From positions 832,001 through 896,000 of the forward strand of contig OZ243913.1 of assembly GCA_965213705.1 (NCBI GenBank): a stretch of DNA of 64,000 bases, written 5' to 3'. The position numbers were made by a program, and so were the translations under genes. Below, piece after piece: positions 3,464 through 57,792 of this stretch. The DNA is from Trueperaceae bacterium. Lineage in GTDB: Bacteria; Deinococcota; Deinococci; Deinococcales; Trueperaceae. The first letter of the stretch is position 1. The number at the start of each line of letters is the position of its first letter. The notes below the pieces were generated by a model. It was not told where the DNA came from. It made no database searches and worked only from the letters and a program-made list of their open reading frames with translations.

Positions 3464-4387
3464 ATGAGCACCGACAAAAGCTTCAGCCAGGGTGTCGGGC
3501 AGTGGCTCGGCACCGCGGAGGTGTTTGACGGCGCGGGCGCTTTTTTAGGCAACGCGACGGACAAGCGGCACGTGCAGCGGCAAACGGACGAGCAGCGCGT
3601 CCGCATCGACCTCTCCTTTGTCGGCCCGTTCAAGTTCGCGGGGCACTATACAATAGCCGACCACGGGTCGCACCGGCTCTACGAAGGCCCCGCCAACGTC
3701 GGCTACGCCGAAACGCTGAGCGACGGGCTCATCGACGCGAACGCCTACTGGCCCGTCACGGGGCTGACGCAACGCTTTTTCCTGATGGTTCTACCCGGCG
3801 GCGACAAACAGGTGTCCCTGGCGCTGATGTCGCGCGGCGAGCAGCTTTTATATGTCGTGGTGGGCGAATACAACCGCGTGACCGAAGAAATCGGTCCGGT
3901 GCCGCCGGGCTTTGTCAACGGCACCTCGTTCGACCTTGCGGGCGACCCCACGGCGGGGCGGGGTACGGTGCTGCTGCACCGTCCGGGGACGTGGCGGGGA
4001 ACGCTGACGAGCCTGGACGAAAAGCTCGAGGCCGCCGGAGAGAGTTCTTACAGTGAGACCGTCAGCAGGAGAGAAGGAAAGCTGAGGGTTAGCGTCGAGG
4101 GCTCAACGCTCGACCCGGAACCCCGTGAGTTTGAGTTGAAGACCGAGGGCGCGCTCGCTTGGGTGCCTGCCAAAGACGAAGGCCTAGAGATTGCGGGTTC
4201 CTACAGCGTGAGCGGCGGGCGGGCGCTCTCAGGGCAGTTCCACCACCTGGCGAAAGCGCTGCGCGTGTGGCGGCGTGAAGTGGTGAGTCACGACGGGACG
4301 CTCAAGGCCGTGCTCCACACTTGGTACCGGGGCGGCGTGCGCGTGGGCGTGGGGTTCGGCGTGTTGGCGTTCGAGGCCGCCCCGTGA
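3464..4387 (+). CDS. Hypothetical two-domain beta-barrel-like protein
   Basis: Two GxW motifs (VGQWLG, PGTWRG); stop overlaps start of next gene. Confidence 0.7.
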   Translation: MSTDKSFSQGVGQWLGTAEVFDGAGAFLGNATDKRHVQRQTDEQRVRIDLSFVGPFKFAGHYTIADHGSHRLYEGPANVGYAETLSDGLIDANAYWPVTGLTQRFFLMVLPGGDKQVSLALMSRGEQLLYVVVGEYNRVTEEIGPVPPGFVNGTSFDLAGDPTAGRGTVLLHRPGTWRGTLTSLDEKLEAAGESSYSETVSRREGKLRVSVEGSTLDPEPREFELKTEGALAWVPAKDEGLEIAGSYSVSGGRALSGQFHHLAKALRVWRREVVSHDGTLKAVLHTWYRGGVRVGVGFGVLAFEAAP

Positions 4388-5229
4388 GCAAAGACGGCTT
4401 CATGGGCGCTTGGCGGGTGAGCGAGTACGTCCACGACCCGGACGGCTGTTTCGTCGGCGTGGTGCGGCAGCGGCGGGAGTTGGAGCGGCTCGAGAACGGC
4501 TACCTCCGCGTGACGCAGCGCTGCGCGCCGGACGCGGCGCTGGCCCGGCATCCTATGGGGCGCTTTGCCGGCACGTGGGTCTTCGACCTCAGCGTGGACG
4601 GACCCGCACGGCTCTACCACGGGCCGGACGTGGTGGGCTCGGGCTTCGCTTGGGGCGAAGGCGCGCTGACGGGGCGCGGGCTGTGGCCCCGTTTTGGACA
4701 CAACTTCACCTCTTTCGCCGTCCTCGTCACGCCCGAGCGGCAGCTCACGGGCGGGCAGTTCTTCGACGCCTCGCAGATGGTCGCCAACGTCGTCGGCGTC
4801 GCGGTGCCGGAGGTATGCGGGCAGTGGCCCGAACTGACCGGGGTAACTCGAGCCGGTGACGTCGCCGCTCGTTGGGTCGGCACCAAGCGCAGGGTCGACC
4901 CGGCGGGCACCGTTCTCTTTGAGGACAAAGTCGAGCGGCGCTATGACGGACAAACTTTTCAGGAAGGGGATTTTCGCCTCTATCTGACCCCCGCCCGAAC
5001 CAAGCTCGAGTGCCGGGGTACCCTGGCCGACGCGAACACACAAGGTCTCGCCAAGCAAACAGGGCCGCTGCTCGAGGGCGAACTCGTCCTGGACGCCCGC
5101 CGGCTGCTCACGTTCAAAGAAGTCCTCGACGCCGAAGCAGGCCACCTCGTCAGCCTGCGCCGCCTGTACAAAGACCAGCAACTCGACCATGTCGAAGTCT
5201 TCCGCCTGAGACCGAAGGGAAAAGCATGA
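4384..5229 (+). CDS. Hypothetical two-domain beta-barrel-like protein
   Basis: GTG 4384 overlaps upstream TGA; FMGAWRV and ARWVG motifs; shares RLYxGP..VG.G.A motif with upstream gene. Confidence 0.7.
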   Translation: MSKDGFMGAWRVSEYVHDPDGCFVGVVRQRRELERLENGYLRVTQRCAPDAALARHPMGRFAGTWVFDLSVDGPARLYHGPDVVGSGFAWGEGALTGRGLWPRFGHNFTSFAVLVTPERQLTGGQFFDASQMVANVVGVAVPEVCGQWPELTGVTRAGDVAARWVGTKRRVDPAGTVLFEDKVERRYDGQTFQEGDFRLYLTPARTKLECRGTLADANTQGLAKQTGPLLEGELVLDARRLLTFKEVLDAEAGHLVSLRRLYKDQQLDHVEVFRLRPKGKA

Positions 5230-6149
5230 TGACGTCGGAACCCGTCCCGAGCCTGCCCCAAACCGCCGAGATTGTCGAAGTGGGTTTGCGCGACGGGTTT
5301 CAGACGCTGCAGAAACCGGTCCCGCTCGAGTTGAAGCTCGAGCTTATCCATATCCTGATTGACGCGGGCGTGAAGCACATCCAAGTCACTTCCTTCGTTC
5401 ACCCCAAGCGCGTGCCGCAGATGGCGGACGCCGAAGAATTATGCGCGGCCTTACCCAACGCGCCGGGGGTCGAGTACAGCGGCTTGGTCTTGAACCTAAA
5501 AGGCGTCGAGCGGGCGCTCGCGGCGGGGCTCAAAGCCCTCGACATGGGCGTGGCGGCGACCGAGAGCTTAAGCCGGCGCAACGCCAACACCTCGGTCGCC
5601 GAGGGCATGGCGCAGATGGGCGACATGGCGCGGACGGCCAAAACCGCGGGCGTCCGGGTTCGCGCCGGGATTCAGACCGCCTTTGGCTGCGCCTACGAGG
5701 GCGAAGTGCCTCAGGAGAGAGTTGTGGACTTGGTGACGCAAACCTTGGACATGGACGTCGACGAACTCGCCCTGTCCGATTCGACCGGCATGGCGAACCC
5801 GTTGCAGGTTGAACGGATGCTCACCGCGCTGCGCCCCCTGGCGGGCGACGTCGAAATCGTCTTGCACCTTCACGACACGCGCGGCCTGGGGCTCGCCAAC
5901 GTTTACGCGGCGCTCCGCCACGGCGTGACCAAGTTCGACACGGCCTTCGGCGGTCTGGGCGGCTGTCCCTTCATCGTCGGGGCGAAAGGCAACATCGCCA
6001 CCGAAGACACGCTCAACCTGATGGCGGAGCTGGGGGTGGCGACGGGGGTGGACATCGGCAAAATCGCGGGACTGTCGAGGCGGCTCGAGGCCTTCCTCGA
6101 CACCCCGCTGCCCGCCAAGCTCCATCACCTTTTGAAAGGCAGCGCGTAA
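5226..6149 (+). CDS. HMG-CoA lyase family enzyme (DRE-TIM)
   Basis: IVEVGLRDGFQ, SFVHPKRVPQMAD, LHLHDTRG, GGLGGCPF..GAKGNIATED. Confidence 0.93.
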   Translation: MMTSEPVPSLPQTAEIVEVGLRDGFQTLQKPVPLELKLELIHILIDAGVKHIQVTSFVHPKRVPQMADAEELCAALPNAPGVEYSGLVLNLKGVERALAAGLKALDMGVAATESLSRRNANTSVAEGMAQMGDMARTAKTAGVRVRAGIQTAFGCAYEGEVPQERVVDLVTQTLDMDVDELALSDSTGMANPLQVERMLTALRPLAGDVEIVLHLHDTRGLGLANVYAALRHGVTKFDTAFGGLGGCPFIVGAKGNIATEDTLNLMAELGVATGVDIGKIAGLSRRLEAFLDTPLPAKLHHLLKGSA

Positions 6150-6152
6150 GCC

Positions 6153-7547
6153 GTGCCTGCTGAAGCTACCCTCGAGCCCACCGACGTCGCCACAGATATT
6201 GTCGTCGTCGGCGGTGGCGGTTGCGGTTTGACAGCGGCTTTGGCGGCGGCGCAACTCGGGGCGCGGGTGACGGTGTTGGAAAAGTTGGCCGAAACCCACG
6301 GCAACACCGGGCGCTCGGGCGGCATGGTTCCGGCGGCGGGCACGCGTTTTCAGCGGGCGGCGGGCGTCGAAGAGGACGCTGCGGCCTTTGCCGAAGACGT
6401 GTTGCGCAAAAACGGCCACACCTCCGACCTCGAGACCACCTTGCACCTGTGCCGGGTTTCGAAAGTCCTGGTCGAGTGGCTGGTGGACGAGGTCGGAATA
6501 GACCTCGTTTTTATCGACGACTTCAAGTATCCGGGGCACACCCAGTTTCGGATGCACGCACCGCCGAGCCGCACCGGGGCGGCGCTCGTCCAAGACTTGC
6601 GCCGCGCCGCCGACGCCGCGCCGAACGTCACCCTGTTGACCGGGTCGCCCGCGCTGGGACTCGTCGAAGACAAGTCGGGTGGGGTGCGCGGGGTTCGGCT
6701 TGCCCGGGGTACGCTCGCCGCGCAAAAAGTCATCTTGGCGAACAACGGCTTCGCAGGCAACCCGGAGATGGTGCGGCGTTACTGCCCCGACATAGAAAAC
6801 GCTCTTTACTTCGGCGGCGCGGGCAACACGGGCGAAGGCATCGCGTGGGGGCAGGCCCTGGGGGCGGAACTCGCCTTTATGGACGCTTACCAGGCGCACG
6901 CTTCGGTGGCGACGCCGGGCAACGTCCTCATCACTTACTCGCTCATTATGGAGGGTGGTGTCCAGGTCAACAGGGCGGGCGAGCGCTTCGGCAACGAGGC
7001 CGCGGGCTACTCCGAACACGCGCTGGCGGTGTTGGGACAAGAGGGCGGCGAGGTTTGGGACGTTTACGGCGAGACGCAGCACCGCTTGGGGCTGAAGTTC
7101 GCGGACTACCGGGCGGCGCTGGCGCTCGGCGTCGTCCTTCGGGCTGACACCCTGCGGGACTTGGCGGGGCAGATGGCGGTGAGTACGGAGGCGCTCGAGA
7201 CCACCCTCGCCGACTACCACGCCGCTGCCGACGGCGAGGTAGAAGACAAGTTCGGACGCCGGGAATGTCAGCGGCTCGCCGCACCCTTTTACGCCGTCAA
7301 GGTCACCGGGGCGCTCTTTCACACGCAGGGCGGTTTGAGGGTTGACAAAGTGGCGAGGGTTGTGCGCTTCGACGGCACGCCCATTCCCAACCTCTACGCC
7401 GGGGGCGGCGTTGCCGCCGGCATCAGCGGACACGGCCCCGGCGGGTACTTGTCGGGCAACGGCCTGCTCACCGCGCTCGGCTACGGGCTGCTCGCCGGGC
7501 GGCACGCGGCGAGCACGTTGGCCCCGGAAATGCGGGGGCCGGGATGA
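6153..7547 (+). CDS. FAD-dependent oxidoreductase (FAD_binding_2; TcuA/flavocytochrome fumarate reductase-like)
   Basis: VVVGGGGCG Rossmann motif, LFHTQGGLRVD, NLYAGG, YLSGNGL. Confidence 0.88.
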   Translation: MPAEATLEPTDVATDIVVVGGGGCGLTAALAAAQLGARVTVLEKLAETHGNTGRSGGMVPAAGTRFQRAAGVEEDAAAFAEDVLRKNGHTSDLETTLHLCRVSKVLVEWLVDEVGIDLVFIDDFKYPGHTQFRMHAPPSRTGAALVQDLRRAADAAPNVTLLTGSPALGLVEDKSGGVRGVRLARGTLAAQKVILANNGFAGNPEMVRRYCPDIENALYFGGAGNTGEGIAWGQALGAELAFMDAYQAHASVATPGNVLITYSLIMEGGVQVNRAGERFGNEAAGYSEHALAVLGQEGGEVWDVYGETQHRLGLKFADYRAALALGVVLRADTLRDLAGQMAVSTEALETTLADYHAAADGEVEDKFGRRECQRLAAPFYAVKVTGALFHTQGGLRVDKVARVVRFDGTPIPNLYAGGGVAAGISGHGPGGYLSGNGLLTALGYGLLAGRHAASTLAPEMRGPG

Positions 7548-7605
7548 CTAGCTTGTTTTGCGGAAGATCCGTGTCATAGTAAACAAAACCCACTAGGAGG
7601 ACGTG

Positions 7606-19556: not shown

Positions 19557-20384
19557 TTAACTCAGCTCGGCGAAGCGCGCTTCCCAAACGCGCAGCGCCC
19601 CAGGGTCGAGCGTGAAGATTCCGTCCCGCCACGACCCCACCTTTGTAAGAATGCGCCTCAGGTTGTCGGGCTCGAGCAGCGCCGGGCCGCTCAGGACGCG
19701 CAGACCACGCAACACCTTCCGCGCCGCCTCGGGCGAGTAGCTGGGCTCGGAGTAAGCGGCGAGGAAGCTCAAGAACATCGGGCTGCGCGTCCTGTCCCTG
19801 TCTTGCAACGCCCCGTAGACTTGCAGCAGGTCGTCACGGGTGGGCGTAGGTGGTGTGGGTGCAACTTGCGTGGGTGCAACTTGCGTGGGTGCAACTTGCG
19901 TGGGCGCGGCCCGGTCGGGTAGAGGTCCCGCCTCGGGCCGGTCGGTGTTGTCGGGAGGGTCGGCGTCGTAGGCCTGGTCGGGCGGATAAGTCCGGTCTCG
20001 GACATCGACCCGTTTGAGTTTGCCTTCGCTGGCGTGGTCTATCTTGCGACTTTCTTTGGTCTTAAAGTCGTACTCGTCCCAGGGAAACTTGTCCAGGTTT
20101 TCGCGGTAGTAAAAACCCCCGCCGTTGCTGGCCTTGTACTGTCCCAGCGTGGAGCTGTGCCGTTTGGGGTAACCCGTACACTGCACGTCGACGTACTCGA
20201 AGTCTTCGCCTTCGCGCTCGCCTTTCTTGGTGGTGACCGAGCGGTAGCGAATCTCGGTGGGCAGCCCGCAGACCAAGCAGCGCTTGGGCACGTCGAGCCA
20301 GCGCTGCGCGTCTCGCAGGGTCTCGAGCTCGCCCCCGGCCTCGACGAGGAGGGTCAGGTTGTGAAAAGAAATTTCGACTCTCAC
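19557..20384 (-). CDS. Hypothetical protein with Zn-ribbon-like N-terminus and Pro-rich linker
   Basis: Clean 275-aa ORF; CLVC...QC...H; APTQV x3. Confidence 0.7.
   Translation of the reverse strand: MRVEISFHNLTLLVEAGGELETLRDAQRWLDVPKRCLVCGLPTEIRYRSVTTKKGEREGEDFEYVDVQCTGYPKRHSSTLGQYKASNGGGFYYRENLDKFPWDEYDFKTKESRKIDHASEGKLKRVDVRDRTYPPDQAYDADPPDNTDRPEAGPLPDRAAPTQVAPTQVAPTQVAPTPPTPTRDDLLQVYGALQDRDRTRSPMFLSFLAAYSEPSYSPEAARKVLRGLRVLSGPALLEPDNLRRILTKVGSWRDGIFTLDPGALRVWEARFAELS
19855..19904. repeat. 15-bp tandem repeat GTGGGTGCAACTTGC x3 plus partial
   Basis: Perfect copies at 19855, 19870, 19885; encodes APTQV on the minus strand. Confidence 0.95.
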
Positions 20385-23783: not shown

Positions 23784-23858
23784 TGGCTCCGCGGGTAGGA
23801 TTCGAACCTACGACCAATCGATTAACAGTCGATCGCTCTGCCACTGAGCTACCGCGGA
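23784..23858 (-). tRNA. tRNA-Asn(GTT)
   Basis: TCCGCGGTAGCTCAGTGGCAGAGCGATCGACTGTTAATCGATTGGTCGTAGGTTCGAATCCTACCCGCGGAGCCA; cloverleaf, encoded CCA. Confidence 0.97.
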
Positions 23859-30145: not shown

Positions 30146-32707
30146 TTACTCCTGGGTTTCGAGGTGGGCCCCGACGAGGCGGCGGGCGAGCGCCAGTTCT
30201 TCGTCAAAGGTGCCGACCTCGCGGCGGTGCCGCGCTTGCGCGACTTGTTTTAGGATTGCTCCCACCTCGGGGCCGGGCGGCAGCCCCAAGTCTAACACGT
30301 CTTGTCCGCGTAACTTTCGTTCGCCGGCGGTCGCTTCATGCTCGAGCACACGAGCTTCCAAACTTTGACTGAACACCTTTATCAGCACTTTTTCGGCCGT
30401 GCCGGACGCCTCCAACTGTTCGCGGGTCACGTCGTCACGCAGCTTGACGGCCCGCAACCGCTCGATGACGCCGAGGTAGCGCCGCGGCCAGTGAAAGCGC
30501 TCGAGCTGCGCAGCCACAGCCTCTTCCGGAACCCCGAGGAGGAGCGCGAATAGGTAACTCTCGTCAGGTACGTCCTCGGTTCGGCGCAAGGTGTCGAGGC
30601 GTTCGGTCGTGCTCGTGTCGAGGTTGAGGCCGAACATCGCCGACAGCGCGCCGACCGTGTCGAGGACTGCAAGTGCGGGCGTCACGGCGTTTTCGTTCAA
30701 GGTCAGCTCGAGTTCGGCGCGCAGCCTGTCGGCGCTGACCCGGCCGAGCACGGCGGGAGCCAGGGCGGCGGGAACCTGGGCGCGGGTGTCGTCTTCGAAG
30801 CGCAAACCCAGCCGCCCCGCGAGCCGCGCCCCGCGCAAGATGCGCGTCGGGTCTTCGACGAACGACAGCGGGTGCAGCGTGCGAAGTTCTTTTTGCTCGA
30901 GGTCCCTCAAACCGCCGTAAGGGTCGATGAGCCGGGGCGGCGGGCCGAGGCGGACGGCGAGCGCGTTCAGCGTATAGTCGCGCCGCGCCAAGTCGTGCGC
31001 GACGCCGCCGGGCGTGACGGTGGGCAGCGCGCCGGGGTGCGCGTAGGTTTCCCGGCGCGCCCCCGCGAGGTCCAAAACGAGGCCGCTCGGCAACTTCAGG
31101 GTGCAGGTGCCGAAGTCGAAGTGGCAGCTCAGCTCGCCGCCCAAGCGCCGCTGCAAACCAGCGCCCAGGGTTTCGGCGCTGCCCCCTTCGACGCTCAAGT
31201 CGAGGTCTTGCATCGCCACGCCCAGCACCGCGTCGCGCACCGTGCCGCCGACGAGGTAGAGCGCGGCGCCGGGCGCGAGCGCGTCTTGCGCCGCTTGAAG
31301 CGCGTCGCGCGCGGCGTGGGGCAGGCGTTCCAGCAGGGCCGCCGCGTCGTCCGGCGCGGCGTCGGTGTCGCGGTGCCGGGCGCTGAGCAGGTCGCTGCGG
31401 CTGACGATGCCGACTAAGTTGGTGAGGTTGGCTTCGCCGGCTTCTAAAACCAAAATCCGCCCGACGTTGCTTTTTTGGACCAACGCCTCTAACTCACTCA
31501 AGCTTGCCGTCGGCGCGGCCGTGACGAGCTTGCGGCGCATCAACCCCTTGACCTGCACGTCGCTCAACTCGTGCTGCGCGGCCTTGTCCAGGGTGCGGCG
31601 GTCGACGAGGCCGACGACGTCGCCCGCCGCCGTCACGACCGGCGCGCCGTGGTAACCGCGGCGCTCGAGCACACCCCGCGCCTCGCGAAGCGTCGCCGTC
31701 TCAGCTACCGTCGTGACCGGCCGACTCATGATGTCTCGCGCGGTGACGGGCGCGCGGCCGTGCCGGGCGAGGGCGGCCAGCAGTTTTTCTTCGGCCCCCT
31801 CCAACGACACTTCGGTCTTTGCAGAAGCCGCCCCCCGGTGTCCGCCACCGCCGAAGGCCTCTTTCAGGGCTGCGCCCACGTCGAAGCCGTCCGAGGCTCG
31901 AGCGATAACGTGCGTGGTGCCGCCCAGCCTCGCCAGGACGAAAGCGGCGTCGGCACTGTGACCCACGCTGTGATTCTCGCCGTGACCCTCGCTGTGACCC
32001 ACGCTGTGCGTCTCTAAGAGTTCGCTGCAAAGAGGCGCCAGGTCGGCGACGTAGTCGTCCCGCCGCAACCGTGCCAGCACGACCCTTCGGCCCATCACAG
32101 TGACTTTCTCGGCGTTCTGCGAAAGCTCTTCGAAGATTTCCCTTTGTCCGTCACCGTGAGCGCCGCGCAAGTAGCGCCGGACAAACGCCAAACTCGCGCC
32201 GGAGCGCAGCAGGTGGGCCGCGGCGTCGTAATCTTCGGCGCGGGTGAGGTCGTAGCTGAGACCGCCGGTGTCGTCGTGGATGCCGAGCAGCGCCAGACTC
32301 GCCAGCTCGGGGGGGATGACGGTGTTTTGCGACTCGAGCAGCAGCGTCAGCAAACTTGCCGTCGCCCCGACCTCGCGCTGGACGCCGTGCGCGGCTTGAA
32401 TGGCGTTTTCGGGGCGCGGGTGGTGGTCGTAAAGGGTGACCGGCACCTGCCCCAGCAGCGCGTCGAAGGGCGCGACGCGCGCCGGGGCCGAAGTGTCGAC
32501 GATGACGAGTTCTTCGACCGCCGCCAAGTCGATGTCCGCAGCCCGGCGCAGGCCCAGGCGGTCTTCATAAAGCCGCGCGACCGCCTCGACCTCGTCGCCC
32601 AAACCGCCCGCCACTACCGCTACCGCGCCCGGATGCGCCAAGCGCGCCAGCGCTACACTCGCCAGCGCGTCGAAGTCCGGGCTGAGGTGGCCGACGATGA
32701 TTTTCAC
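30146..32707 (-). CDS. DHH-CBS tRNA nucleotidyltransferase (CCA/A-adding type)
   Basis: HLSPDFDALAS, YDHH, GGGGH, CBS pair, YLVGGTVRD..DLD, DLARRDYTLNA, EDPTRILR. Confidence 0.92.
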   Translation of the reverse strand: MKIIVGHLSPDFDALASVALARLAHPGAVAVVAGGLGDEVEAVARLYEDRLGLRRAADIDLAAVEELVIVDTSAPARVAPFDALLGQVPVTLYDHHPRPENAIQAAHGVQREVGATASLLTLLLESQNTVIPPELASLALLGIHDDTGGLSYDLTRAEDYDAAAHLLRSGASLAFVRRYLRGAHGDGQREIFEELSQNAEKVTVMGRRVVLARLRRDDYVADLAPLCSELLETHSVGHSEGHGENHSVGHSADAAFVLARLGGTTHVIARASDGFDVGAALKEAFGGGGHRGAASAKTEVSLEGAEEKLLAALARHGRAPVTARDIMSRPVTTVAETATLREARGVLERRGYHGAPVVTAAGDVVGLVDRRTLDKAAQHELSDVQVKGLMRRKLVTAAPTASLSELEALVQKSNVGRILVLEAGEANLTNLVGIVSRSDLLSARHRDTDAAPDDAAALLERLPHAARDALQAAQDALAPGAALYLVGGTVRDAVLGVAMQDLDLSVEGGSAETLGAGLQRRLGGELSCHFDFGTCTLKLPSGLVLDLAGARRETYAHPGALPTVTPGGVAHDLARRDYTLNALAVRLGPPPRLIDPYGGLRDLEQKELRTLHPLSFVEDPTRILRGARLAGRLGLRFEDDTRAQVPAALAPAVLGRVSADRLRAELELTLNENAVTPALAVLDTVGALSAMFGLNLDTSTTERLDTLRRTEDVPDESYLFALLLGVPEEAVAAQLERFHWPRRYLGVIERLRAVKLRDDVTREQLEASGTAEKVLIKVFSQSLEARVLEHEATAGERKLRGQDVLDLGLPPGPEVGAILKQVAQARHRREVGTFDEELALARRLVGAHLETQE

Positions 32708-43428: not shown

Positions 43429-45363
43429 TCAAAAAACGCGCGCCTCCCGCAGCCGGGCTATTTTCTCCAGGTCGCGCAGCAGGTCGCCGCTGTTCTCCGA
43501 GGTGTCGAGCGGGGACAGGCCGGGCGACCTGAAAATTGCTAAGCAGACCCCGACGATTTCGGGGTCGAAGTGGCTGCCGCCGCACCGCTCGACTTCGGCC
43601 AAAGCTTCCTCGGCGGACCAGGCCCGCTTGTAGGGCCGTTCGTGGGTGAGCGCGTCCAGCACGTCGGCTACGGCGACGATGCGGGCGGCCAGCGGGATGT
43701 CGGTGCCGGCCAGGCGGTGGGGGTAGCCTTGACCGTCCCAGCGCTCGTGGTGGGCTATCGCTACGCTCTCCGCCAACTGCAACAAAGCCGAATGGCCGTT
43801 CGCCAGGATGCTCGCGCCTATGGCCGCGTGCGTCCGCATAACGCTGAACTCCTCGTCGGTAAGCTTGCCGGGCTTGAGCAGGGTCGCGTCCGGGATGCCT
43901 ATTTTGCCCACGTCGTGCAGCCGCGCGGCCGTGTAGAGCAGCTGCGTTTCCTCCAAAGACCAGCCCAGGGCGTAGGCCAGCAGGGCGGCGGTCCGGCCGA
44001 CCCGGCGCGTGTGCTCGGCCGTGTCGTCGTCGCGGTACTCGGCGGCGACCGCGAGCCGCGTCACGACTTCTAGGTGAGCCTCTTCAAGCTCGCGGGTACG
44101 CTCGCGCACCAGGCGTTCGGCCTCTTCGTGGGCTTGGCGGCTCAGTTCGGACTTGAGCCGGTACACCTCGGCTTCGCGGTGCGCCTTTTCGAGGTCGATT
44201 TTGAGCGTCAGGCGGCGCGTTTTCTCGGCGTTTTCGTCGTTGAAGATGCGTTCTTTCAAGCTGTGAAACGCTTCTAGGTGGTAGACCGCCTTCTCGAAGC
44301 CGCCTTGCAGCTTGTAGGCCTGCGCCAAGAGTTCGTGAGCCTCGTACAAGGCTTTGGGCTGCTCGGTCTGCTCGGCCAGCAACAGCGCGGCCTGGGCGTG
44401 CGCGACGGCGTCGGAGAACGAGCGCGTCGCCAGTTCGTCTTTCGCCAGGTTGAGGGCGCTGCTCAGTTTTTTGGGCACGTCGTTGATAGAAGCGGCCAGT
44501 TCGGCGGCCAGCCGGTGGGCCTCGCGCGCCCTCGAGAACAGGCCCTTTTTACGAAAAACGTTGCCCAGACCCTCGGTCGCAGCTATCTGGTAGACGACGA
44601 GACCGTGGTGCTCGCTCAGGTCTTCCGCCGCCACAAAAGCGGTTTCCGCGTCCGCGAAGCGCGCCAGTTCCAGGTAAACCTCGCCTAAGTTGATGAGCGA
44701 CACGACCTCTAAGATGTCGTCGCCGAGGTGGGCGGCTATGCCCAGGGCGTCGTTGTAAAAGGAGGCTGCCCGTTCGAACTTGCCGAGCGCGGCGTAGGTC
44801 AACCCGAGGTTTTGCAAGTTGATGGCGGCGCTGCGCGACTCGGGGTCGTGGTCTTTGAGAATTTCGTAAGCCTCTTGCAAGGACACGAGGGCGGTTTGGT
44901 ACTCGGAGAGTTCGCGGTAGATGTCGCCGGCGTTCGTGAGCACGTCGGCGAGCAGCCTGGTCTGCCCGAGCACCTTGAGGAGGGTTGCGGCCCGTTCCAG
45001 GTGGGTGAGCGCGGCGGAGAGGTCGCCCAACAGGGCGAAGACGCTGGCAAGCTGGTTGAGGGCGTTGGCCTCCAAGTCCTTCAAAGCCTCGTCCTGGGCG
45101 AGCTTCAGGGCTGTTTCGAAGTGCGTTTTCGCCGCTGCAAAGTCGCCGTGCTCGCGCGCGATTTTACCGAGCAGCAACTCGGCCTCGCCGCGGTGTTGCG
45201 GCGCGAAATCGTCAGCGGCGAGGCCTTCCAACAGACTCGTCTGGGCGGCGCTCAGCTGGCCCAGCTCGAAGGCTTTTTGGGCTTGCTCGAGGCGTTCTAG
45301 CGCGGCGGGAAAGTCGGCTTCTTCGCCGTCCCGCGCCCTGAGCTGTAGGGTGACTTCAGCCAT
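43429..45363 (-). CDS. TPR-repeat / HD-GYP cyclic di-GMP phosphodiesterase
   Basis: About 390 aa of TPR helices, a coiled coil, then HTRRV, LHDVGKIG, HHERWDGQGYP, ARIVAVADVLDAL, RPYK. Confidence 0.92.
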   Translation of the reverse strand: MAEVTLQLRARDGEEADFPAALERLEQAQKAFELGQLSAAQTSLLEGLAADDFAPQHRGEAELLLGKIAREHGDFAAAKTHFETALKLAQDEALKDLEANALNQLASVFALLGDLSAALTHLERAATLLKVLGQTRLLADVLTNAGDIYRELSEYQTALVSLQEAYEILKDHDPESRSAAINLQNLGLTYAALGKFERAASFYNDALGIAAHLGDDILEVVSLINLGEVYLELARFADAETAFVAAEDLSEHHGLVVYQIAATEGLGNVFRKKGLFSRAREAHRLAAELAASINDVPKKLSSALNLAKDELATRSFSDAVAHAQAALLLAEQTEQPKALYEAHELLAQAYKLQGGFEKAVYHLEAFHSLKERIFNDENAEKTRRLTLKIDLEKAHREAEVYRLKSELSRQAHEEAERLVRERTRELEEAHLEVVTRLAVAAEYRDDDTAEHTRRVGRTAALLAYALGWSLEETQLLYTAARLHDVGKIGIPDATLLKPGKLTDEEFSVMRTHAAIGASILANGHSALLQLAESVAIAHHERWDGQGYPHRLAGTDIPLAARIVAVADVLDALTHERPYKRAWSAEEALAEVERCGGSHFDPEIVGVCLAIFRSPGLSPLDTSENSGDLLRDLEKIARLREARVF

Positions 45364-45430
45364 TCGAAACACTCCGTCCCAGGGGTCCGGTCTACCGCCG
45401 CCCCGCTTGACTGGAGTTTAAAACGGCGAC

Positions 45431-45456
45431 TGTCACGGGGTTCTTACAACGTGACA
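45431..45456. promoter_or_regulatory. Candidate regulator box TGTCAC-N5-TCTTACAA
   Basis: Near-identical box TCTCAC-N5-TCTTACAA at 47041-47059 upstream of the subtilase. Confidence 0.5.
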
Positions 45457-45517
45457 AAGTGGGCGCGTCAAACACGCGCCCACCGGATTTTGCCGTTTCA
45501 AAGCGTTTCGGTTTTGC

Positions 45518-46873
45518 TCAGAATTTCAGGACGTCGCCCAGGAACTGTCTCAGGTCGAGCCGGCCCTTACCCATGCCGTCTTTGTAAAGTGCTTCGTTCA
45601 TGCCGACGTCGTAGAGTTTGTCCATAACTTTTTCGCCGACGAGTTTGGGCAGGTCTTTAGGAGCTTTGTCCAGGTTCGGCTGGCCCAGGGCCAGCGCCAG
45701 CGCGCCCGAGACCATCGGCGCGGCGAACGAGGTGCCGCTCACGTAAGCAACTTGGCCGTTAGGGTAAGCGGTGAAGACGATTTCACCTGGAGCGACCGTT
45801 TCAACCATGTCTTTTTGATAGGTCGAAAAGGCGGACTTTTCGTCGACGGCGTTGACACTGCCGACGCTCACGAGTGCGTCTTTGTAAGGCGTGTCCTTGA
45901 GCGCCCCTCGAGCCGGAAAGGTGACGCTCCGGTCGCCCGAGTTGCCCGACGAGGCGACGACCGCGACGCCCTTGTTTTTCGCCTTCTCCAAGACCTTTTC
46001 CACCGCGGCAGAGGTTTCCGCTGCGCCGAGCGATACGTTGACAACCTTCGCGCCGCGATCAACGGCCCAGTTGATGGCGAGGGCTAAGTTGTCGGTGTCG
46101 CCCTGACCGTCGGCGCCCAGCACCCGCAAGGGCATGATTTTCGCCAGCGGCGCGACCTGCAGAATGATGCCCGCCACCGCGGTGCCGTGGCCGTAGCCGT
46201 CTCCGAAACCCTCGTCCTGGGGCCGCGCGTCGCCGTCTACAAAGTCCCAACCCGGCACGAGCCGGTCGGTAAACACGGGGTGAGCGAGGTCGAGGCCGGT
46301 GTCGATGACGGCGACGACGACGCCGTTGCCCAAGTGAGGGGCCAGCTTGGTGTGCGCTTCGAGAAGACCTATTTGCTGCCAAGCGCGCGCGTTGTCGAGT
46401 GGGGTAAAGGTTAGTTGGGTGGGCACAGAGCCGTCCCAAGCTGTTGCGCCGCCAGCCCAAGCCCGGACACCGCCGGCCCAGGCGCGCACGCCGCCGGCCC
46501 AAGCGCGCACGCCGCCGGCCCAAGCGCGCACGCCGGCCGCGCTGAGTTCGGGCAGTGCGAACGCGTTTTGGTTTTGCTCCAAGGAAAGCGTGGTGAGCCC
46601 GGCCATCCCGTCGGCAAAGCCCAGTACGGCGAAACCCGCTTCGGCGTCGAAAAGAACGACGCTGCCGCCGTAAAGCGCCTCGAGTTCGGCCGGGGTGGTG
46701 TCGGAACCGACAGTGACCGTGGTGAGCGAAGCGAAGTCCTGATTCGTGTTCAGCTCAGGCGCGCTGCTGAGGCTGCACGACGACAGCGCCCCCACCAAAA
46801 GGGTGAGCAGCCAGAACAGGAGCCAGCGATGTTTGGTTTGATGCCCGGTGTGATTCAAATCGGTGTAAGACAA
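45518..46873 (-). CDS. Lipoprotein S8 subtilase with tandem peptide repeat
   Basis: Lipobox LSSC; triad VIDTG / GHGTAVAG / GTSFAAP; oxyanion SSGN. Confidence 0.93.
   Translation of the reverse strand: MSYTDLNHTGHQTKHRWLLFWLLTLLVGALSSCSLSSAPELNTNQDFASLTTVTVGSDTTPAELEALYGGSVVLFDAEAGFAVLGFADGMAGLTTLSLEQNQNAFALPELSAAGVRAWAGGVRAWAGGVRAWAGGVRAWAGGATAWDGSVPTQLTFTPLDNARAWQQIGLLEAHTKLAPHLGNGVVVAVIDTGLDLAHPVFTDRLVPGWDFVDGDARPQDEGFGDGYGHGTAVAGIILQVAPLAKIMPLRVLGADGQGDTDNLALAINWAVDRGAKVVNVSLGAAETSAAVEKVLEKAKNKGVAVVASSGNSGDRSVTFPARGALKDTPYKDALVSVGSVNAVDEKSAFSTYQKDMVETVAPGEIVFTAYPNGQVAYVSGTSFAAPMVSGALALALGQPNLDKAPKDLPKLVGEKVMDKLYDVGMNEALYKDGMGKGRLDLRQFLGDVLKF
46430..46537 (-). repeat. 21-bp coding tandem repeat, (VRAWAGG)x4 plus ATAWDGS
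   Basis: Read directly; the four copies differ only at synonymous positions. Confidence 0.95.
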
Positions 46874-47319
46874 GATGGTTCTCCAAAACGAAACGTAAGT
46901 CGGTCGCGCTACTGGCTCGCCGCCGTTCTAGCGCCCGGTTAAGAGCGGCGGGTCTGCACCTCTTACTTGCTCCTTTCGGAATAAACTTGGGTAAACTCAG
47001 TCTTCTACCCGTGTTTCGTTTACCAATGTACGAGGTTGGGTCTCACGAAACTCTTACAAAACTTTTCGGCAGCGGTTTCGTGAGAGGTTGAGCCAGCCCC
47101 GTTGTGACCTCGTCGCAAATCTCTTGGACTCCACGTTGGCGAGGTGTAAGCCTTTTCGTTTCGACGCGCTAAGGAAAGGCTGTAAGTTCTGGGACACAGG
47201 GCACGCACTCTCAACTACCTGAGTTGCCTCGAGCCACCAAGACTCCCGTCTGCAAGGCGTGCGTTTTTGGGCGGCCGCTGGTGTAAAGTTCTCTACGAAG
47301 ACTTTTTCAGGAGGCTCTT

Positions 47320-49116
47320 TTGGCGCTCACCACAGCCCGCCCGCATAAAAACAGCGAGTTCAGCGTCGCGAACGAGTACGTTTACGACCGCAGCGGCGGG
47401 CCGGTGCGCTGGCTTGTGTCGCACCTGCTGCGCTACAAGCTGTTGTTGGGCCTGTTTTTACTTGCGGTGACCCTGACTAACATCCTCTTTTCGGCGGTGC
47501 CGCGCCTGACGGGTGTGGCCTTCGACGTGGTGCTCCAGCCCGACCCGAGCGCGCGGCGGCTATTGACCCTCGCCGCGCTTATTTTGGGTGCCGTGCTGGT
47601 GCGCGGCGTTATCGACCTCGGCAACAGTTTTTCGATAGAGACCCTGGGGCAGCGGCTCGAGCGCGACGCGCGCGAAGAGCTGTACCTGAGTTTGCTGGGC
47701 AAAAGCCAGACCTTTCACAACCGCCAGCGCGTCGGCGACATCATGGCGCGCGCGACCGGCGACGTGCGCCAGCTCAACCCGATGATGAACCCCGGCGTGG
47801 CGCTCATCTCCGAGTCGGTCGTCGCGACGGTCGTGCCGCTCGTTTTCATCGCCTTTATCGACCTGCGGCTGTTGCTTTCGCCCGCACTGTTCGTCGTGGT
47901 GTTTGTGCTCGCGCTACGCGACTACATGCGGCGGCTCAACCCCGTGTCCGGCGCGATGCGCCGCCGGTTCGGGACGATGAACGCCGGGCTGAACGAGGCC
48001 ATCACCGGCATCGAGGTAGTTAAGTCGACGGTGCAAGAAACGCAGGAACAGCGCAAGTTTGTCGGCGACGCGACGAACTACCGGGACGCCTTTGTCGCGC
48101 AGGGCCGGGTGCAGGCGCGCTACCTGCCGATTTTGCTGTTCGGCTTCGCGCTGACGGGGGCGTTCGCGCACGGCTTGTGGCTGTTGTCAAAGGGCCAGCT
48201 CACGGTCGGAGACCTGGTGGCTTACCTGGGACTGGTCGGCGCGATGCGTTTTACCGCGTCCATTTCGGTGTTCACTTTTTCGCTCGTGCAGTTGGGTTTG
48301 GCCGGGGCCGAGCGGATTCTCGAGCTGATGAGCGAAGAAACCGAACTCGACGAAAACGTGGGCGGCCACGCCTCACCGATTCGTGGGCGCATCGTGTTCG
48401 AGAACGTGAGTTTCGGCTATGTGGGCGCGGACGGCAAACAAAGCTTGCACAACGTCTCGTTCGAGGCCGCGCCGGGCGAGACCGTCGCCATCGTCGGGCA
48501 GACGGGCTCGGGCAAGAGCACGCTGACCAAGCTCGTCAACCGCGCCTACGACGTGAGCGCGGGCCGTATCCTCATCGACGGGGTGGACGTGCGGGACTGG
48601 AACTTAGAGTCCTTGCGCCAGCAGGTTTCGGTCATCGAGCAAGACGTGTTTTTGTTCTCCCGCTCCGTCGCCGACAACATCGCCTTCGGGCTGGGTGAAA
48701 AAGCGACGCGGGCGGCCGTTCTGGAGGCCGCCAAGGCCGCGCAAGCGCACAGTTTCATCACGAACTTTGCCGACGGCTACGGGACGGTTATCGGCGAGCG
48801 CGGCGTGACGCTCTCGGGAGGGCAGCGGCAGCGTTTGGCGATTGCTCGAGCCCTCCTCACCGACCCGCGCATTCTCATCTTGGACGACTCGACGAGCGCG
48901 GTCGACAGCGCCACCGAGGACGCGATTCAGCGCGCCATCGACAAGGTGCTAGAGGGCCGCACCACGCTCATGATTACGCACCGGCTGTCGCAGATTCGCC
49001 GCGCCGACAAAATCTTGGTCTTGGAGCGCGGCGAAATCGTCGCCCAAGGCACACACGACGAACTGCTGATGCGCTCAAAACTCTACCGCCGAATCTTCGC
49101 GAGGCAAGACGCATGA
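47320..49116 (+). CDS. ABC exporter half-transporter, degenerate NBD
   Basis: TM domain, GQTGSGKS, LSGGQ, ILDDSTS (Asp in place of the catalytic Glu). Confidence 0.93.
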   Translation: MALTTARPHKNSEFSVANEYVYDRSGGPVRWLVSHLLRYKLLLGLFLLAVTLTNILFSAVPRLTGVAFDVVLQPDPSARRLLTLAALILGAVLVRGVIDLGNSFSIETLGQRLERDAREELYLSLLGKSQTFHNRQRVGDIMARATGDVRQLNPMMNPGVALISESVVATVVPLVFIAFIDLRLLLSPALFVVVFVLALRDYMRRLNPVSGAMRRRFGTMNAGLNEAITGIEVVKSTVQETQEQRKFVGDATNYRDAFVAQGRVQARYLPILLFGFALTGAFAHGLWLLSKGQLTVGDLVAYLGLVGAMRFTASISVFTFSLVQLGLAGAERILELMSEETELDENVGGHASPIRGRIVFENVSFGYVGADGKQSLHNVSFEAAPGETVAIVGQTGSGKSTLTKLVNRAYDVSAGRILIDGVDVRDWNLESLRQQVSVIEQDVFLFSRSVADNIAFGLGEKATRAAVLEAAKAAQAHSFITNFADGYGTVIGERGVTLSGGQRQRLAIARALLTDPRILILDDSTSAVDSATEDAIQRAIDKVLEGRTTLMITHRLSQIRRADKILVLERGEIVAQGTHDELLMRSKLYRRIFARQDA

Positions 49117-49252
49117 AAATTTATGCAGCTGCGAGCAGGGGAGCAAACGTTGTTCGTCCTCCGCTCAGCGCGACGAACCCCCAATTGACGGCTTTCTTCT
49201 ACTCGGTCCTTTCCACTCGGTCCTCGGTACTTTCTGCTCGAGCGAGCAGCTG

Positions 49253-51076
49253 ATGGGCTTCATCATGGACGGCGTCGCCACCGAGGCGTACGACCGCAGC
49301 TACAGCGACCGCCAACTCTTGCGCCGCATCTTCGCCTATTTCCGGCCGCACCTAAAAACGATGGTGTTCGTCGCCCTCATGACCTTTTTGGACGCGCTGA
49401 TGGGCGCGGCGCTGCCGGTCTTAATCTCGCGCGGCATCGACGTGTTGGACGGCTCGAGCGACTTGCAAGCCGGGCTGTGGCAACAAGCGGGCGGTCTGCT
49501 CGTCGCCGTGTTGCTGGCCGGGGCGCTCGCCTGGACGTTCAACTTTTTTCGCCAGACCTATACCGCTCGCGCAGTGGGCGACGTGGTGCTCGAGCTGCGC
49601 AAGGACGCCTTCGACGCGGTGCTGGCGCGCGACATGTCGTTTTACGACGAGTTCTCGACCGGCAAAATCGTCAGCCGCGTCACCTCGGACACGCAAGACT
49701 TCGCGACCGTCGTCACCCTGACGCTCAACCTCATGAGCCAGGTGTTGCAAATCCTCATCATCGTCGGCGTGCTGTTTTACCTGAACGTGCGCCTCACGCT
49801 CATCGCGCTTGTTATCGCGCCCTTTATCGTCGCGGCGGCCCTGGCATTTCGCTACGTCGCGCGCTTTACCGCGCAGCAGGCGCGGCGCGTCCTCGCCGAG
49901 GTAAACGCGAACGTGCAGGAGTCTGTCACGGGCATCTCGGTGGCGAAGGCGTTTCGGCAGGAGCGGACCGTGTTCGACACCTTCAGCCGGGTCAACGAGC
50001 AGTCCTACGACCTGAACTTGCGGCAGGGCCTCGTCTTCAGCTCGATTTTCCCCATCCTCGGCACCATTGCGGGAGTCGGCACGGCGCTGGTCGTGTACTT
50101 CGGCGGGCGCAGCGTTTTGGCGGGTACGGTCACGGCGGGCGAGTGGTACTTGTTCGTCCAGAGCGTCGCGCTGTTCTGGTTTCCGCTGACGAGCATCGCC
50201 TCGTTTTGGAGCCAGTTTCAGCAAGGACTGGCGGCGAGCGAGCGCGTTTTCGCCCTCGTCGACGCCGAGCCTCGAGTGGTGCAGATCGGCGCTGAACAGG
50301 TTGGGGATTTGCGGGGGCGGCTCGAGTTCGTGAGGATGGACTTTCGATACACCGAACAGGAGCAGGTGCTCCGCAGTTTCGACCTGACGATTCCGGCCGG
50401 GGAGACCGTCGCCTTTGTCGGCCACACCGGGGCGGGCAAGTCGAGCCTTGGCAAGCTCGTCGCGCGTTTTTACGAGTTTCAGGGCGGTCAGTTGCTCGTC
50501 GACGGGCGCGACATCCGCACGCTCGACTTGCAAAGTTACCGCCGTCACCTAGGCATCGTCCAGCAGACGCCCTTTTTGTTCCGCGGCACGGTGCGCGAAA
50601 ACATCCGCTACGGGGCTCCAAACGCCTCGGACGAAGAGGTGGTTGCGGTGGCGCGGCGGGTCGGCGGCGGCGACTGGCTGGACGTGTTGCCGCAGGGTTT
50701 GGACACCGACGTGGGCGAGTCCGGCAAGGGCATTTCGGGCGGGCAGCGGCAGCTCGTGGCCTTGGCTCGAGTGCTGCTGCAAAACCCGCGTATTTTAATC
50801 CTGGACGAGGCGACGGCGAGCGTCGACCCATTGACCGAGGCGCAGATTCAAGAGGGGCTCGAGCTTGTCCTGCGTGACCGCACCGCCATCGTCATCGCCC
50901 ACCGGCTCTCGACCATTCGCAGCGCCGACCGAATTATCGTGTTGAGCAAGGGCGAAATTGTCGAGGAGGGTACGCACGAGGGCTTGCTCGAGCAAGGTGG
51001 TCACTACGCCGAACTCTACAACACCTACTTCCGGCACCAGTCGCCGGACTACGACCCGGTAGGGGCGGGGTCTTAG
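49253..51076 (+). CDS. ABC exporter half-transporter, consensus Walker B
   Basis: GHTGAGKS, ISGGQ, ILDEATAS, AHRLST. Confidence 0.93.
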   Translation: MGFIMDGVATEAYDRSYSDRQLLRRIFAYFRPHLKTMVFVALMTFLDALMGAALPVLISRGIDVLDGSSDLQAGLWQQAGGLLVAVLLAGALAWTFNFFRQTYTARAVGDVVLELRKDAFDAVLARDMSFYDEFSTGKIVSRVTSDTQDFATVVTLTLNLMSQVLQILIIVGVLFYLNVRLTLIALVIAPFIVAAALAFRYVARFTAQQARRVLAEVNANVQESVTGISVAKAFRQERTVFDTFSRVNEQSYDLNLRQGLVFSSIFPILGTIAGVGTALVVYFGGRSVLAGTVTAGEWYLFVQSVALFWFPLTSIASFWSQFQQGLAASERVFALVDAEPRVVQIGAEQVGDLRGRLEFVRMDFRYTEQEQVLRSFDLTIPAGETVAFVGHTGAGKSSLGKLVARFYEFQGGQLLVDGRDIRTLDLQSYRRHLGIVQQTPFLFRGTVRENIRYGAPNASDEEVVAVARRVGGGDWLDVLPQGLDTDVGESGKGISGGQRQLVALARVLLQNPRILILDEATASVDPLTEAQIQEGLELVLRDRTAIVIAHRLSTIRSADRIIVLSKGEIVEEGTHEGLLEQGGHYAELYNTYFRHQSPDYDPVGAGS

Positions 51077-57751: not shown

Positions 57752-57792
<41 letters not shown>

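Follow-up and report, generated by a model that had tools for sequence, protein, structure and literature searches.

Propeptide degradation after autoprocessing is an established step in the activation of subtilisins, and in pro-subtilisins the tail of the propeptide occupies the active-site cleft and is degraded upon activation. Proteases of the S8 family also release peptide signals: in the yeast alpha-factor/Kex2 system, and in fungal Kex2-processed repeat peptides, identical cassettes in one precursor are freed by an S8 protease, and GmSubPep is reportedly a single cryptic 12-mer signal peptide embedded in a soybean subtilase. Among tetratricopeptide repeat (TPR) proteins, LGN/Pins and kinesin light chain hold extended peptides in an inner groove, the motifs bound by kinesin light chain being Trp-centred. 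Phr propeptides carry tandemly duplicated pheromones and are matured by extracellular proteases (PMC11343458; PMC5199041). Here, we analysed a locus on the minus strand of a 64,000-nucleotide stretch from a Trueperaceae bacterium of the phylum Deinococcota (GenBank assembly GCA_965213705.1, contig OZ243913.1, positions 832,001 to 896,000 of the forward strand; this whole stretch is referred to as the window), in which a lipoprotein pro-subtilase of the S8 family with a tandem array of the unit VRAWAGG is followed by a gene for a TPR protein fused to an HD-GYP domain, hereafter the TPR sensor. Comparison of homologous loci indicated that the array-bearing subtilase and the TPR sensor form a conserved Deinococcota module, which we regard as real and established. 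The best explanation that we can offer for it, with a probability of roughly 0.5, is that the array units would be freed as hepta- or octapeptides at zymogen maturation, taken up into the cell and bound by the TPR domain, setting the level of cyclic di-GMP (c-di-GMP).

The subtilase array and its linkage to TPR sensors

The window subtilase has a TTG start codon with GGAG 7 nt upstream. Its lipobox cysteine, Cys33, was invariant in one alignment (20 homologues) and conserved to 90% or more in another (68 homologues), and the triad and oxyanion residues D191, H229, S382 and N311 were invariant in 68 homologues, which bears out the preliminary description of a lipoprotein subtilase with an intact triad. 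The array was recovered by Tandem Repeats Finder as a repeat of period 21 with 4.2 copies (score 143) at 46447..46535. Also as described previously, four VRAWAGG copies are accompanied by a variant fifth unit, ATAWDGS, and the four copies differ only synonymously: the first two copies share the same DNA sequence, the third departs from it at two codons (gcc, ggt) and the fourth at three (gtc, cgg, gct). Across the whole window array, 16 of the 70 codon pairs differed synonymously and 16 non-synonymously, and every non-synonymous difference involved the fifth unit.

AlphaFold2 (AF2) modelling with 68 homologues gave predicted local distance difference test (pLDDT) scores of 94-97 for residues 45-110 and above 90 for residues 157-451, with scores below 50 for residues 112-154 and of 27-41 in the array. 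No match to Pfam Inhibitor_I9 was found in the subtilase at E 0.01, and the propeptide is assigned at the level of the fold only; the model aligned across both the pro- and the catalytic parts with the unprocessed pro-subtilisins 3whi_B (422 columns) and 2e1p (461 columns), these matches being pro-subtilisin E and pro-Tk-subtilisin. Alignment with the thermitase sequence placed the canonical mature N terminus at about residues 154-157, with the array ending about five residues before it. The modelled domains and both sets of alignments thus support the placement of the array at the junction of prodomain and catalytic domain, and the array is predicted to form the disordered C-terminal tail of the propeptide, immediately ahead of the expected autoprocessing site. 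With the lipid anchor on the propeptide side, the first cut would leave the array at the membrane. A search of the whole 4.25-Mb genome for W.GG arrays found them, among long open reading frames (ORFs), only in this subtilase and one paralogue; two further loose matches lay in ORFs of 40-52 amino acids, and a reversed-translation control gave none.

The TPR sensor gene follows on the same strand at a distance of 145 bp if its GTG codon is used, or 154 bp if translation starts at the ATG at 45363, in line with the approximately 155 bp noted before. The ATG is preceded by GGAG at a distance of 8 nt and is the more probable start, given that the corresponding residue, M4, is nearly invariant in the sensor alignment (A4). 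A match to Pfam TPR_12 (2.2e-34), the motifs LHDVGK and HHERWDGQGYP and the lack of a transmembrane segment agree with a cytoplasmic TPR and HD-GYP fusion with intact motifs, and by its HD-GYP matches and motifs the output is a predicted c-di-GMP phosphodiesterase.

With a cut-off of E <= 1e-40, 165 of 364 Deinococcota genomes, from 33 of 60 genera, had a homologue of the subtilase. Units of the general form xxxWxGG, scored as W-x-[GSA]-[GSAN] with a spacing of 7 or 8 residues, were present in three or more copies ahead of the catalytic Asp in 112 of the best 120 homologues and in two copies in another three. Homologue loci were taken from the best 90 rows of the Deinococcota match list, 280 further matches lying outside this sample; seven rows were left out because their contigs ended less than 1 kb downstream (G135:C121, G321:C473, G320:C330, G321:C197, G323:C8, G122:C104 and G138:C729), and one more row fell inside a stretch already retrieved. 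The resulting sample comprised 82 stretches (~820 kb) with 87 subtilase ORFs from 59 Deinococcota species in four families. A regular expression found at least three units in 78 of the 87 subtilases (period 7 in 40 arrays and 8 in 38), and most of the remaining nine also proved to have arrays on inspection, only those of L157 and L186 among them being degenerate. As a control, we used 80 loci from all phyla that a search with the subtilase alignment had matched mainly through generic S8 motifs (5 from Deinococcota and 75 from other phyla), and arrays were present only in three of the Deinococcota loci.

A TPR sensor lay directly downstream, on the same strand and within 600 bp, of 51 of the 87 subtilases, with a gap of often only 1-13 bp in Deinococcus, whereas the 75 S8 loci of other phyla included none with a TPR sensor and none with an array. 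The linkage of array-bearing subtilases to TPR-HD-GYP or TPR-GGDEF genes, a check that had been set beforehand, was therefore confirmed. When the whole retrieved stretch was considered, 66 of the 87 subtilases had a TPR sensor, and 62 of the 82 stretches held one; in the other arrangements, the sensor was convergent, divergent or placed after a second tandem subtilase. By comparison, the other neighbouring genes in the window recurred in only 1-4 of the 82 stretches, and in the genome of the window a TPR match was found next to both array-bearing S8 subtilases versus none of the six array-less S8 paralogues.

The outputs of the 52 sensors that are immediate neighbours were HD-GYP (20), HD-GYP plus GGDEF (15), GGDEF (12) or neither (5), and all three scanned members of the last group carry HATPase_c, the ATPase domain of histidine kinases. 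No transmembrane or signal segment was detected in any of the 52. A constant TPR input combined with swapped outputs is the signature of a sensory module. On a quick subtilase tree with support from the Shimodaira-Hasegawa-like approximate likelihood ratio test (SH-aLRT), the type of output was clustered: it changed 11 times, as opposed to 26.4 times when the labels were shuffled, and none of 200 shuffles gave so low a number. The subtilase and the sensor are therefore co-inherited, with the output switched several times.

A second pair is encoded in the same genome (C1:3132824-3135234, L001:5825..9235). Its 437-residue subtilase, the sole close paralogue of the window subtilase in this genome, carries three copies of RSAWSGG, and a TPR-GGDEF protein with a GGEEF site and an RxxD motif five residues upstream of it is encoded 166 bp downstream. 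Four distinct subtilase-sensor pairs were found in the genome G258.

Array-bearing subtilase genes also occur as tandem pairs (L123, L169, L180, L184 and L187). The two genes of L184 are each accompanied by a separate TPR sensor; a single sensor comes after both genes in L169, L180 and L187. In L136, the subtilase is followed not by a TPR sensor gene but by a gene (4315-7590) for a 1091-residue protein with an extracellular contractile injection system (eCIS) core domain (PF13699, 3.3e-23). In L158 (6165-8798) and L174 (985-3588), 1007-residue array-bearing subtilases are followed by proteins of 867-877 residues that have no Pfam match at 1e-7, and a divergent TPR-GGDEF gene lies upstream of each.

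Copy identity and co-variation with the sensor

Within arrays, the proportion of synonymous differences (pS) was 0.555 and that of non-synonymous differences (pN) 0.118 (pN/pS 0.21), with synonymous sites near saturation. In ten arrays, all copies were identical as peptides, with 2-22 synonymously differing codon pairs and no non-synonymous ones; the synonymous pairs numbered 20 of 42 in L117, 21 of 42 in L154 and 10 of 21 in the paralogue (L001). Recent duplication or gene conversion was considered as the source of copy identity and rejected in view of the ~55% synonymous difference within arrays. Since this near-saturated divergence excludes such recent events, every copy of the array is held by purifying selection, and the earlier suggestion that the peptide sequence is under selection, made from the window array, extends to the sampled arrays.

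The units differ greatly among lineages. We counted 61 distinct modal units in 78 arrays, and the four variable positions of the unit differed in 22.8% of the comparisons within arrays versus 73.6% of those between arrays; W, G and G were invariant, the W being fixed by the regular expression itself. Sameness within a protein combined with difference between lineages is what would be expected of a multi-copy product that fits a co-evolving partner. In L141, L166, L175, L177, L167 and L188, the units follow an A-B-A order (for example, RSIWMGG / WQAWAGG / RSIWMGG), units 1 and 3 being kept identical within an array yet differing between species. This pattern suggests that two types of peptide come out of one precursor.

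The candidate partner is the TPR domain. The top Foldseek matches of its AF2 model were LGN/Pins TPR-peptide complexes (TM-score 0.82-0.83), in which an extended peptide lies in the inner groove, and its nearest relatives by sequence were LGN/Pins and kinesin light chain (E 2e-16 to 4e-9). The sole sequence match of RRNPP type in the PDB, 5dbk_A, was weak (E 2.6e-4 over ~70 residues). On the strength of these matches, the domain is a plausible peptide binder, but membership of the RRNPP receptor family cannot be demonstrated for it.

A further check named in the preliminary description was whether repeat and receptor co-vary. In 45 pairs, the divergence of the repeat tracked that of the TPR domain when the catalytic domain was controlled for (partial Mantel r = 0.27, none of 2000 permutations as high, relatedness uncorrected) and did not track that of the catalytic domain when the TPR domain was controlled for (r = -0.01). 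The unit cores were all identical in 32 of 55 arrays with a sensor nearby versus 3 of 23 without one (Mann-Whitney p = 0.005, relatedness uncorrected). The clearest single case is that of L166 and L175, from two Deinococcus species, whose loci have 90-95% DNA identity outside a 750-nt block (L166:4497-5246) in which it drops to 61-68%; this block spans TPR repeats 1-6, and the unit is RSIWMGG in L166 and RSFWMGG in L175. It looks like a polymorphism of the pherotype kind or an import by recombination. Among close pairs, the ratio of N-terminal to C-terminal TPR divergence reached at least 1.9 only where the units differed, and was 0.8-1.5 in six pairs with the same unit. We consider these results suggestive of co-variation.

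They also bear on what the sensor might read. If the TPR sensor responded to generic oligopeptides cut from external proteins, as in nutrient or matrix sensing, its cytoplasmic location, the 13 family-5 (SBP_bac_5) peptide-binding proteins of the genome, the binding of extended peptides by LGN-type TPR domains and the shared inheritance of protease and sensor would all be accommodated. The array would then be left unexplained, with its lineage-specific identical copies, its 61 unit types and a hypervariable TPR block that accompanies a change of unit, and several distinct pairs in one genome, such as the four in G258, suggest specific ligands; we consider generic sensing improbable.

The TPR domain might instead bind the array of the pre-pro-subtilase in the cytoplasm before export, as a chaperone or a monitor of secretion load. 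Both partners are cytoplasmic at synthesis, the array is predicted to be disordered and would hence be accessible, and many pairs overlap or lie 1-13 bp apart, which would permit translational coupling. In the window, a strong hairpin stands between the two genes: the spacer folds with a minimum free energy of -61 kcal/mol (z -3.37, none of 200 shuffles as low), and the hairpin may be a terminator or attenuator, although a scan for consensus promoters and terminators did not flag it (no promoter-like sites; 8 terminator-like sites versus 7.1 expected). We know of no precedent for such a monitor, in which multiple identical copies and pherotype-like diversification would be unexpected, and we give this possibility very little weight. 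On the minus strand of the spacer, the only ORFs are of 22-27 amino acids and none has a hydrophobic signal, so that no plausible small propeptide ORF was found there.

A predicted riboswitch and the candidate circuit

The leader of the window subtilase contains an aptamer that scored 57.2 bits with the c-di-GMP-II-GAG model, against a gathering score of 40 (E 8.5e-11), and covered the full model (1-86); a purpose-built covariance model gave 84.5 bits, and the aptamer of the orthologue from the same genus reached 62.8 with RF01786 against a threshold of 53.5. By score, coverage and position in a 5' leader, it is a predicted member of the c-di-GMP-II clan (CL00127). Six c-di-GMP-II-GAG aptamers were found in the genome. 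The second lies 9 nt before the paralogous RSAWSGG subtilase (50.6 bits), and the other four are at L192:318-401, L193:277-361, L194:262-346 and L195:4319-4404. Three of these four precede genes for large lipoproteins, with a Big_7 Ig-like domain, an apiosidase-like hydrolase plus collagen-binding domain, and a G8/CEMIP beta-helix/PA14 arrangement, respectively; the one in L193 had no clear downstream gene and is located just after an HD-GYP match (C1:127054-127578).

We built the covariance model from ten aptamers and ran it on the 820 kb of retrieved stretches. All 16 matches lay at the 5' end of an array-bearing subtilase (16 of 87 subtilases), and 14 of them reached Rfam gathering scores, some as canonical RF01786; eight belong to long subtilases without a nearby sensor. 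In total, 74 of the 87 subtilases were tied to a sensor, a riboswitch or both. The combination, in this genome, of a predicted riboswitch on the subtilase with an adjacent enzyme that would degrade c-di-GMP (or, in the second pair, make it) reads as a feedback loop. Both the riboswitch and the second pair are additions to what had been observed before at this locus.

That the array might be a neutral low-complexity repeat with a TPR neighbour by coincidence is already contradicted by these data. Slippage easily creates tandem repeats, and genes for TPR and HD-GYP proteins are common (~11 HD-GYP matches in this genome alone); conservation in 59 species of four families, the pN/pS of 0.21, the linkage in 51 of 87 subtilases as opposed to 0 of 75 control loci and the position of 16 of 16 riboswitches leave this explanation with next to no credence.

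More serious is the idea that the array serves the protease itself, as a disordered pseudo-substrate or spacer that times or inhibits activation or allows the lipid-anchored prodomain to keep the enzyme at the envelope, while the sensor reads some other intracellular cue and the two genes are neighbours through a c-di-GMP regulon. The position of the array is precisely that at which, in pro-subtilisins, the tail of the propeptide enters the active site, and its invariant W, G and G, with the same reservation about the W, resemble a cleavage or recognition motif of the enzyme. Moreover, 21 of the 87 subtilases have no nearby sensor, eight of these having the riboswitch alone, and the four riboswitches near unrelated genes in this genome, three of them before secreted lipoproteins, point to a c-di-GMP-controlled secretome. 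A role confined to the protease would nevertheless leave unexplained why the TPR input is kept while the outputs are swapped, why the copies are more uniform beside sensors and why the divergence of the units follows the TPR domain instead of the catalytic domain; nor would a spacer need identical copies under saturated synonymous divergence. We regard this alternative as unlikely, though not negligible.

If the units do act as peptide signals, the following sequence of events can be proposed. After export and lipidation, the prodomain would fold the enzyme, and autoprocessing would take place near residues 152-157, by which the array would become the C-terminal tail of a membrane-anchored propeptide. 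The active enzyme would degrade this propeptide, as subtilisins do, and cut the array into equal peptides; Trp at P1 with small residues following would fit the preference of subtilisins. An oligopeptide permease would then import the peptides, for which the family-5 peptide-binding proteins mentioned above are permissive only. Inside the cell, the LGN-like TPR superhelix would hold the peptides in its inner groove, and the change would be relayed to the HD-GYP domain by the long helix. The resulting level of c-di-GMP would feed back on subtilase synthesis through the riboswitch, and the second pair, with its three RSAWSGG units and TPR-GGDEF sensor, would be an orthogonal channel acting on c-di-GMP synthesis. 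More tentatively, and with somewhat less than even confidence, we propose a family of peptide-signalling systems in Deinococcota without a dedicated pheromone gene: the linker of a lipid-anchored zymogen would hold the pheromone as a multi-copy cassette, activation of the protease would free 3-7 identical Trp-containing peptides, and every type of peptide would have a co-evolving cytoplasmic TPR sensor of its own, with different pairs in one cell lowering c-di-GMP (HD-GYP), raising it (GGDEF) or acting through a kinase; a riboswitch would close the loop in some lineages, and the 61 units would be pherotypes.

Several observations weigh against peptide signalling. The sample is biased towards relatives of the query, being drawn from the best-scoring rows. 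The subtilases without a TPR sensor in the retrieved stretch are mostly long forms with a C-terminal lectin or carbohydrate-binding module (CBM) domain, and 13 of the 87 subtilases have neither sensor nor riboswitch. Some subtilases that are linked to a sensor have decayed arrays (L157/L186 and L180b/L187b). RRNPP receptors were absent among the Foldseek matches listed for the TPR domain. The striking cases of co-variation come from one clade, and the clearest block is from a single species pair and possibly an import by recombination; the Mantel and Mann-Whitney statistics ignore kinship, and even between loci with the same unit the TPR domains diverge faster than the output domains. To our knowledge, no ligand has been established for the 'GAG' variant of the riboswitch.

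The features of the locus are collected in Table 1. NCBIfam gave no match above a family cut-off for either the subtilase or the TPR/HD-GYP protein. A reading of the pair as an anti-phage system was rejected, as PADLOC gave only generic subtilase and TPR models. Two ABC exporter genes (598 and 607 amino acids; 47320..51076, plus strand) lie divergent from the subtilase; as the peptide exporter of the module they were rejected, being near the module in just 3-4 of the 82 stretches. Elsewhere in the window there are other short tandem repeats, at 19840..19907 (a 15-nt unit, 3.3 perfect copies), 31956..32008 (12-nt unit, 4.4 copies) and 57754..57791 (7/14-nt unit), and an ordinary tRNA gene (23787..23858, minus strand, Rfam 74.5 bits). 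An ordinary T-box leader was found in the stretch of a relative (L128:8007-8288, 102.7 bits).

Table 1. Positions in the window of the subtilase, the TPR sensor and their parts
Feature	Position	Strand	Remarks
c-di-GMP-II-class aptamer (predicted)	46889..46972	minus	best Rfam model RF03169 (c-di-GMP-II-GAG); 5' leader, 3' end 15 nt before TTG
S8 lipoprotein pro-subtilase	45518..46873	minus	451 aa; Pfam Peptidase_S8 2.2e-38; AF2 pLDDT 85.4
Lipoprotein signal peptide	46775..46873	minus	aa 1-33; lipobox L-S-S-C at its end
Propeptide, I9-like fold (predicted)	46541..46741	minus	aa ~45-111; AF2 pLDDT 94-97; beta-alpha-beta-beta
Tandem array, VRAWAGG x4 + ATAWDGS	46427..46531	minus	aa 115-149; candidate signal cassettes in a predicted disordered linker
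Subtilase catalytic domain	45521..46405	minus	aa ~157-451; D191, H229, N311, S382
Intergenic spacer	45373..45517	minus	145 bp; 11-bp G+C-rich hairpin directly after the subtilase stop codon
TPR/HD-GYP sensor protein, soluble	43429..45372	minus	647 aa from GTG; likely 644 aa from ATG 45363
TPR input domain	44308..45306	minus	aa 23-355; ~nine helical hairpins, LGN/Pins-like; AF2 pLDDT 94.1
Long signalling helix, joint of TPR domain and output (AF2 model)	44131..44298	minus	aa 359-414
HD-GYP domain	43555..44040	minus	aa 445-606; HD_5 3.6e-34, HD 1.3e-19; HD and HHExxDGxGYP motifs

Comparison with known systems

Signalling by peptides through TPR receptors is seen as a speciality of Bacillota and phages, and an analogue in Deinococcota, if true, would widen this picture. 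It would differ in three respects, namely a signal inside the protease that matures it, outputs that act directly on c-di-GMP and riboswitch feedback on the protease. The many orphan TPR-GGDEF and TPR-HD-GYP proteins would gain a first input signal, and the repeat seen in hundreds of proteins annotated as 'S8 family peptidases', so far a puzzle, would gain a function. Engineering, too, could draw on the system as a compact and orthogonal switch from peptide to second messenger. Should the peptide reading fail, the link of W-array subtilase, TPR sensor and c-di-GMP-II riboswitch would stay a new and solid comparative finding, as would the unusual selection for identity of the copies within arrays. 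The literature searched, which mostly did not cover subscription journals, contained no account of the repeat, of the gene pair or of a link between riboswitch and subtilase.

The preliminary description had called the system RRNPP-like with an enzymatic output. The likeness stands for the logic of the system and does not stand for homology of the TPR domain, which is LGN/Pins-like and not like that of Rap, NprR or PlcR, or for the separate propeptide gene. The outputs are indeed enzymatic by prediction (HD-GYP and GGDEF domains), yet an enzymatic output is not new in itself, as Rap proteins are phosphatases and so provide a precedent. Of five defining features of RRNPP systems considered here, a cytoplasmic protein with a TPR-type domain was found here (TPR_12 match, no transmembrane segment, AF2 superhelix), and three others were looked for and not found: receptor homology, a separate propeptide gene and the type of output.

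As in the RRNPP(A) systems (Rap-Phr, NprR-NprX, PlcR-PapR and AimR-AimP), a cytoplasmic TPR protein is encoded beside a candidate source of short peptides, and many diverging paralogous pairs are possible per genome. In those systems, precursors may hold tandem copies of the pheromone and proteases, including those of the subtilisin type, mature them (PMC11343458; PMC5199041). Unlike them, the locus described here has no separate propeptide gene, the candidate peptides being part of the protease zymogen; its TPR domain resembles that of LGN/Pins, and in the sensors HD-GYP, GGDEF or histidine kinase domains take the place of helix-turn-helix domains or a Rap phosphatase as outputs. The phylum is Deinococcota and not Bacillota, and a predicted riboswitch would close the loop.

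The subtilase itself resembles subtilisins matured by an I9-type intramolecular chaperone in the order of prodomain, cleavage site and catalytic domain and in its match to the folds of pro-subtilisin E and pro-Tk-subtilisin; it differs in the 35-residue array of W-containing units, predicted to be disordered, at the end of the propeptide and in the lipid anchor on the propeptide side of the zymogen. Like the c-di-GMP-II riboswitches (RF01786 and RF03169), the aptamer scores above the gathering threshold and lies in the 5' leader of a gene for a secreted protein, and unlike in those riboswitches, the controlled gene is paired with an enzyme predicted to degrade or make the presumed ligand.

In the alpha-factor/Kex2 system, precursor and protease are separate and the receptor is a G-protein-coupled receptor; here, both would reside in one polypeptide, with a putative cytoplasmic receptor. 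As distinct from the single peptide that is said to be embedded in the soybean subtilase, a tandem array lies in the pro-linker, and a candidate receptor gene is adjacent. The TPR domain is closest to LGN/Pins and kinesin light chain by sequence and to LGN/Pins by fold as well; those proteins are eukaryotic scaffolds without enzymatic output, and the likeness is therefore one of fold and binding mode, not of pathway.

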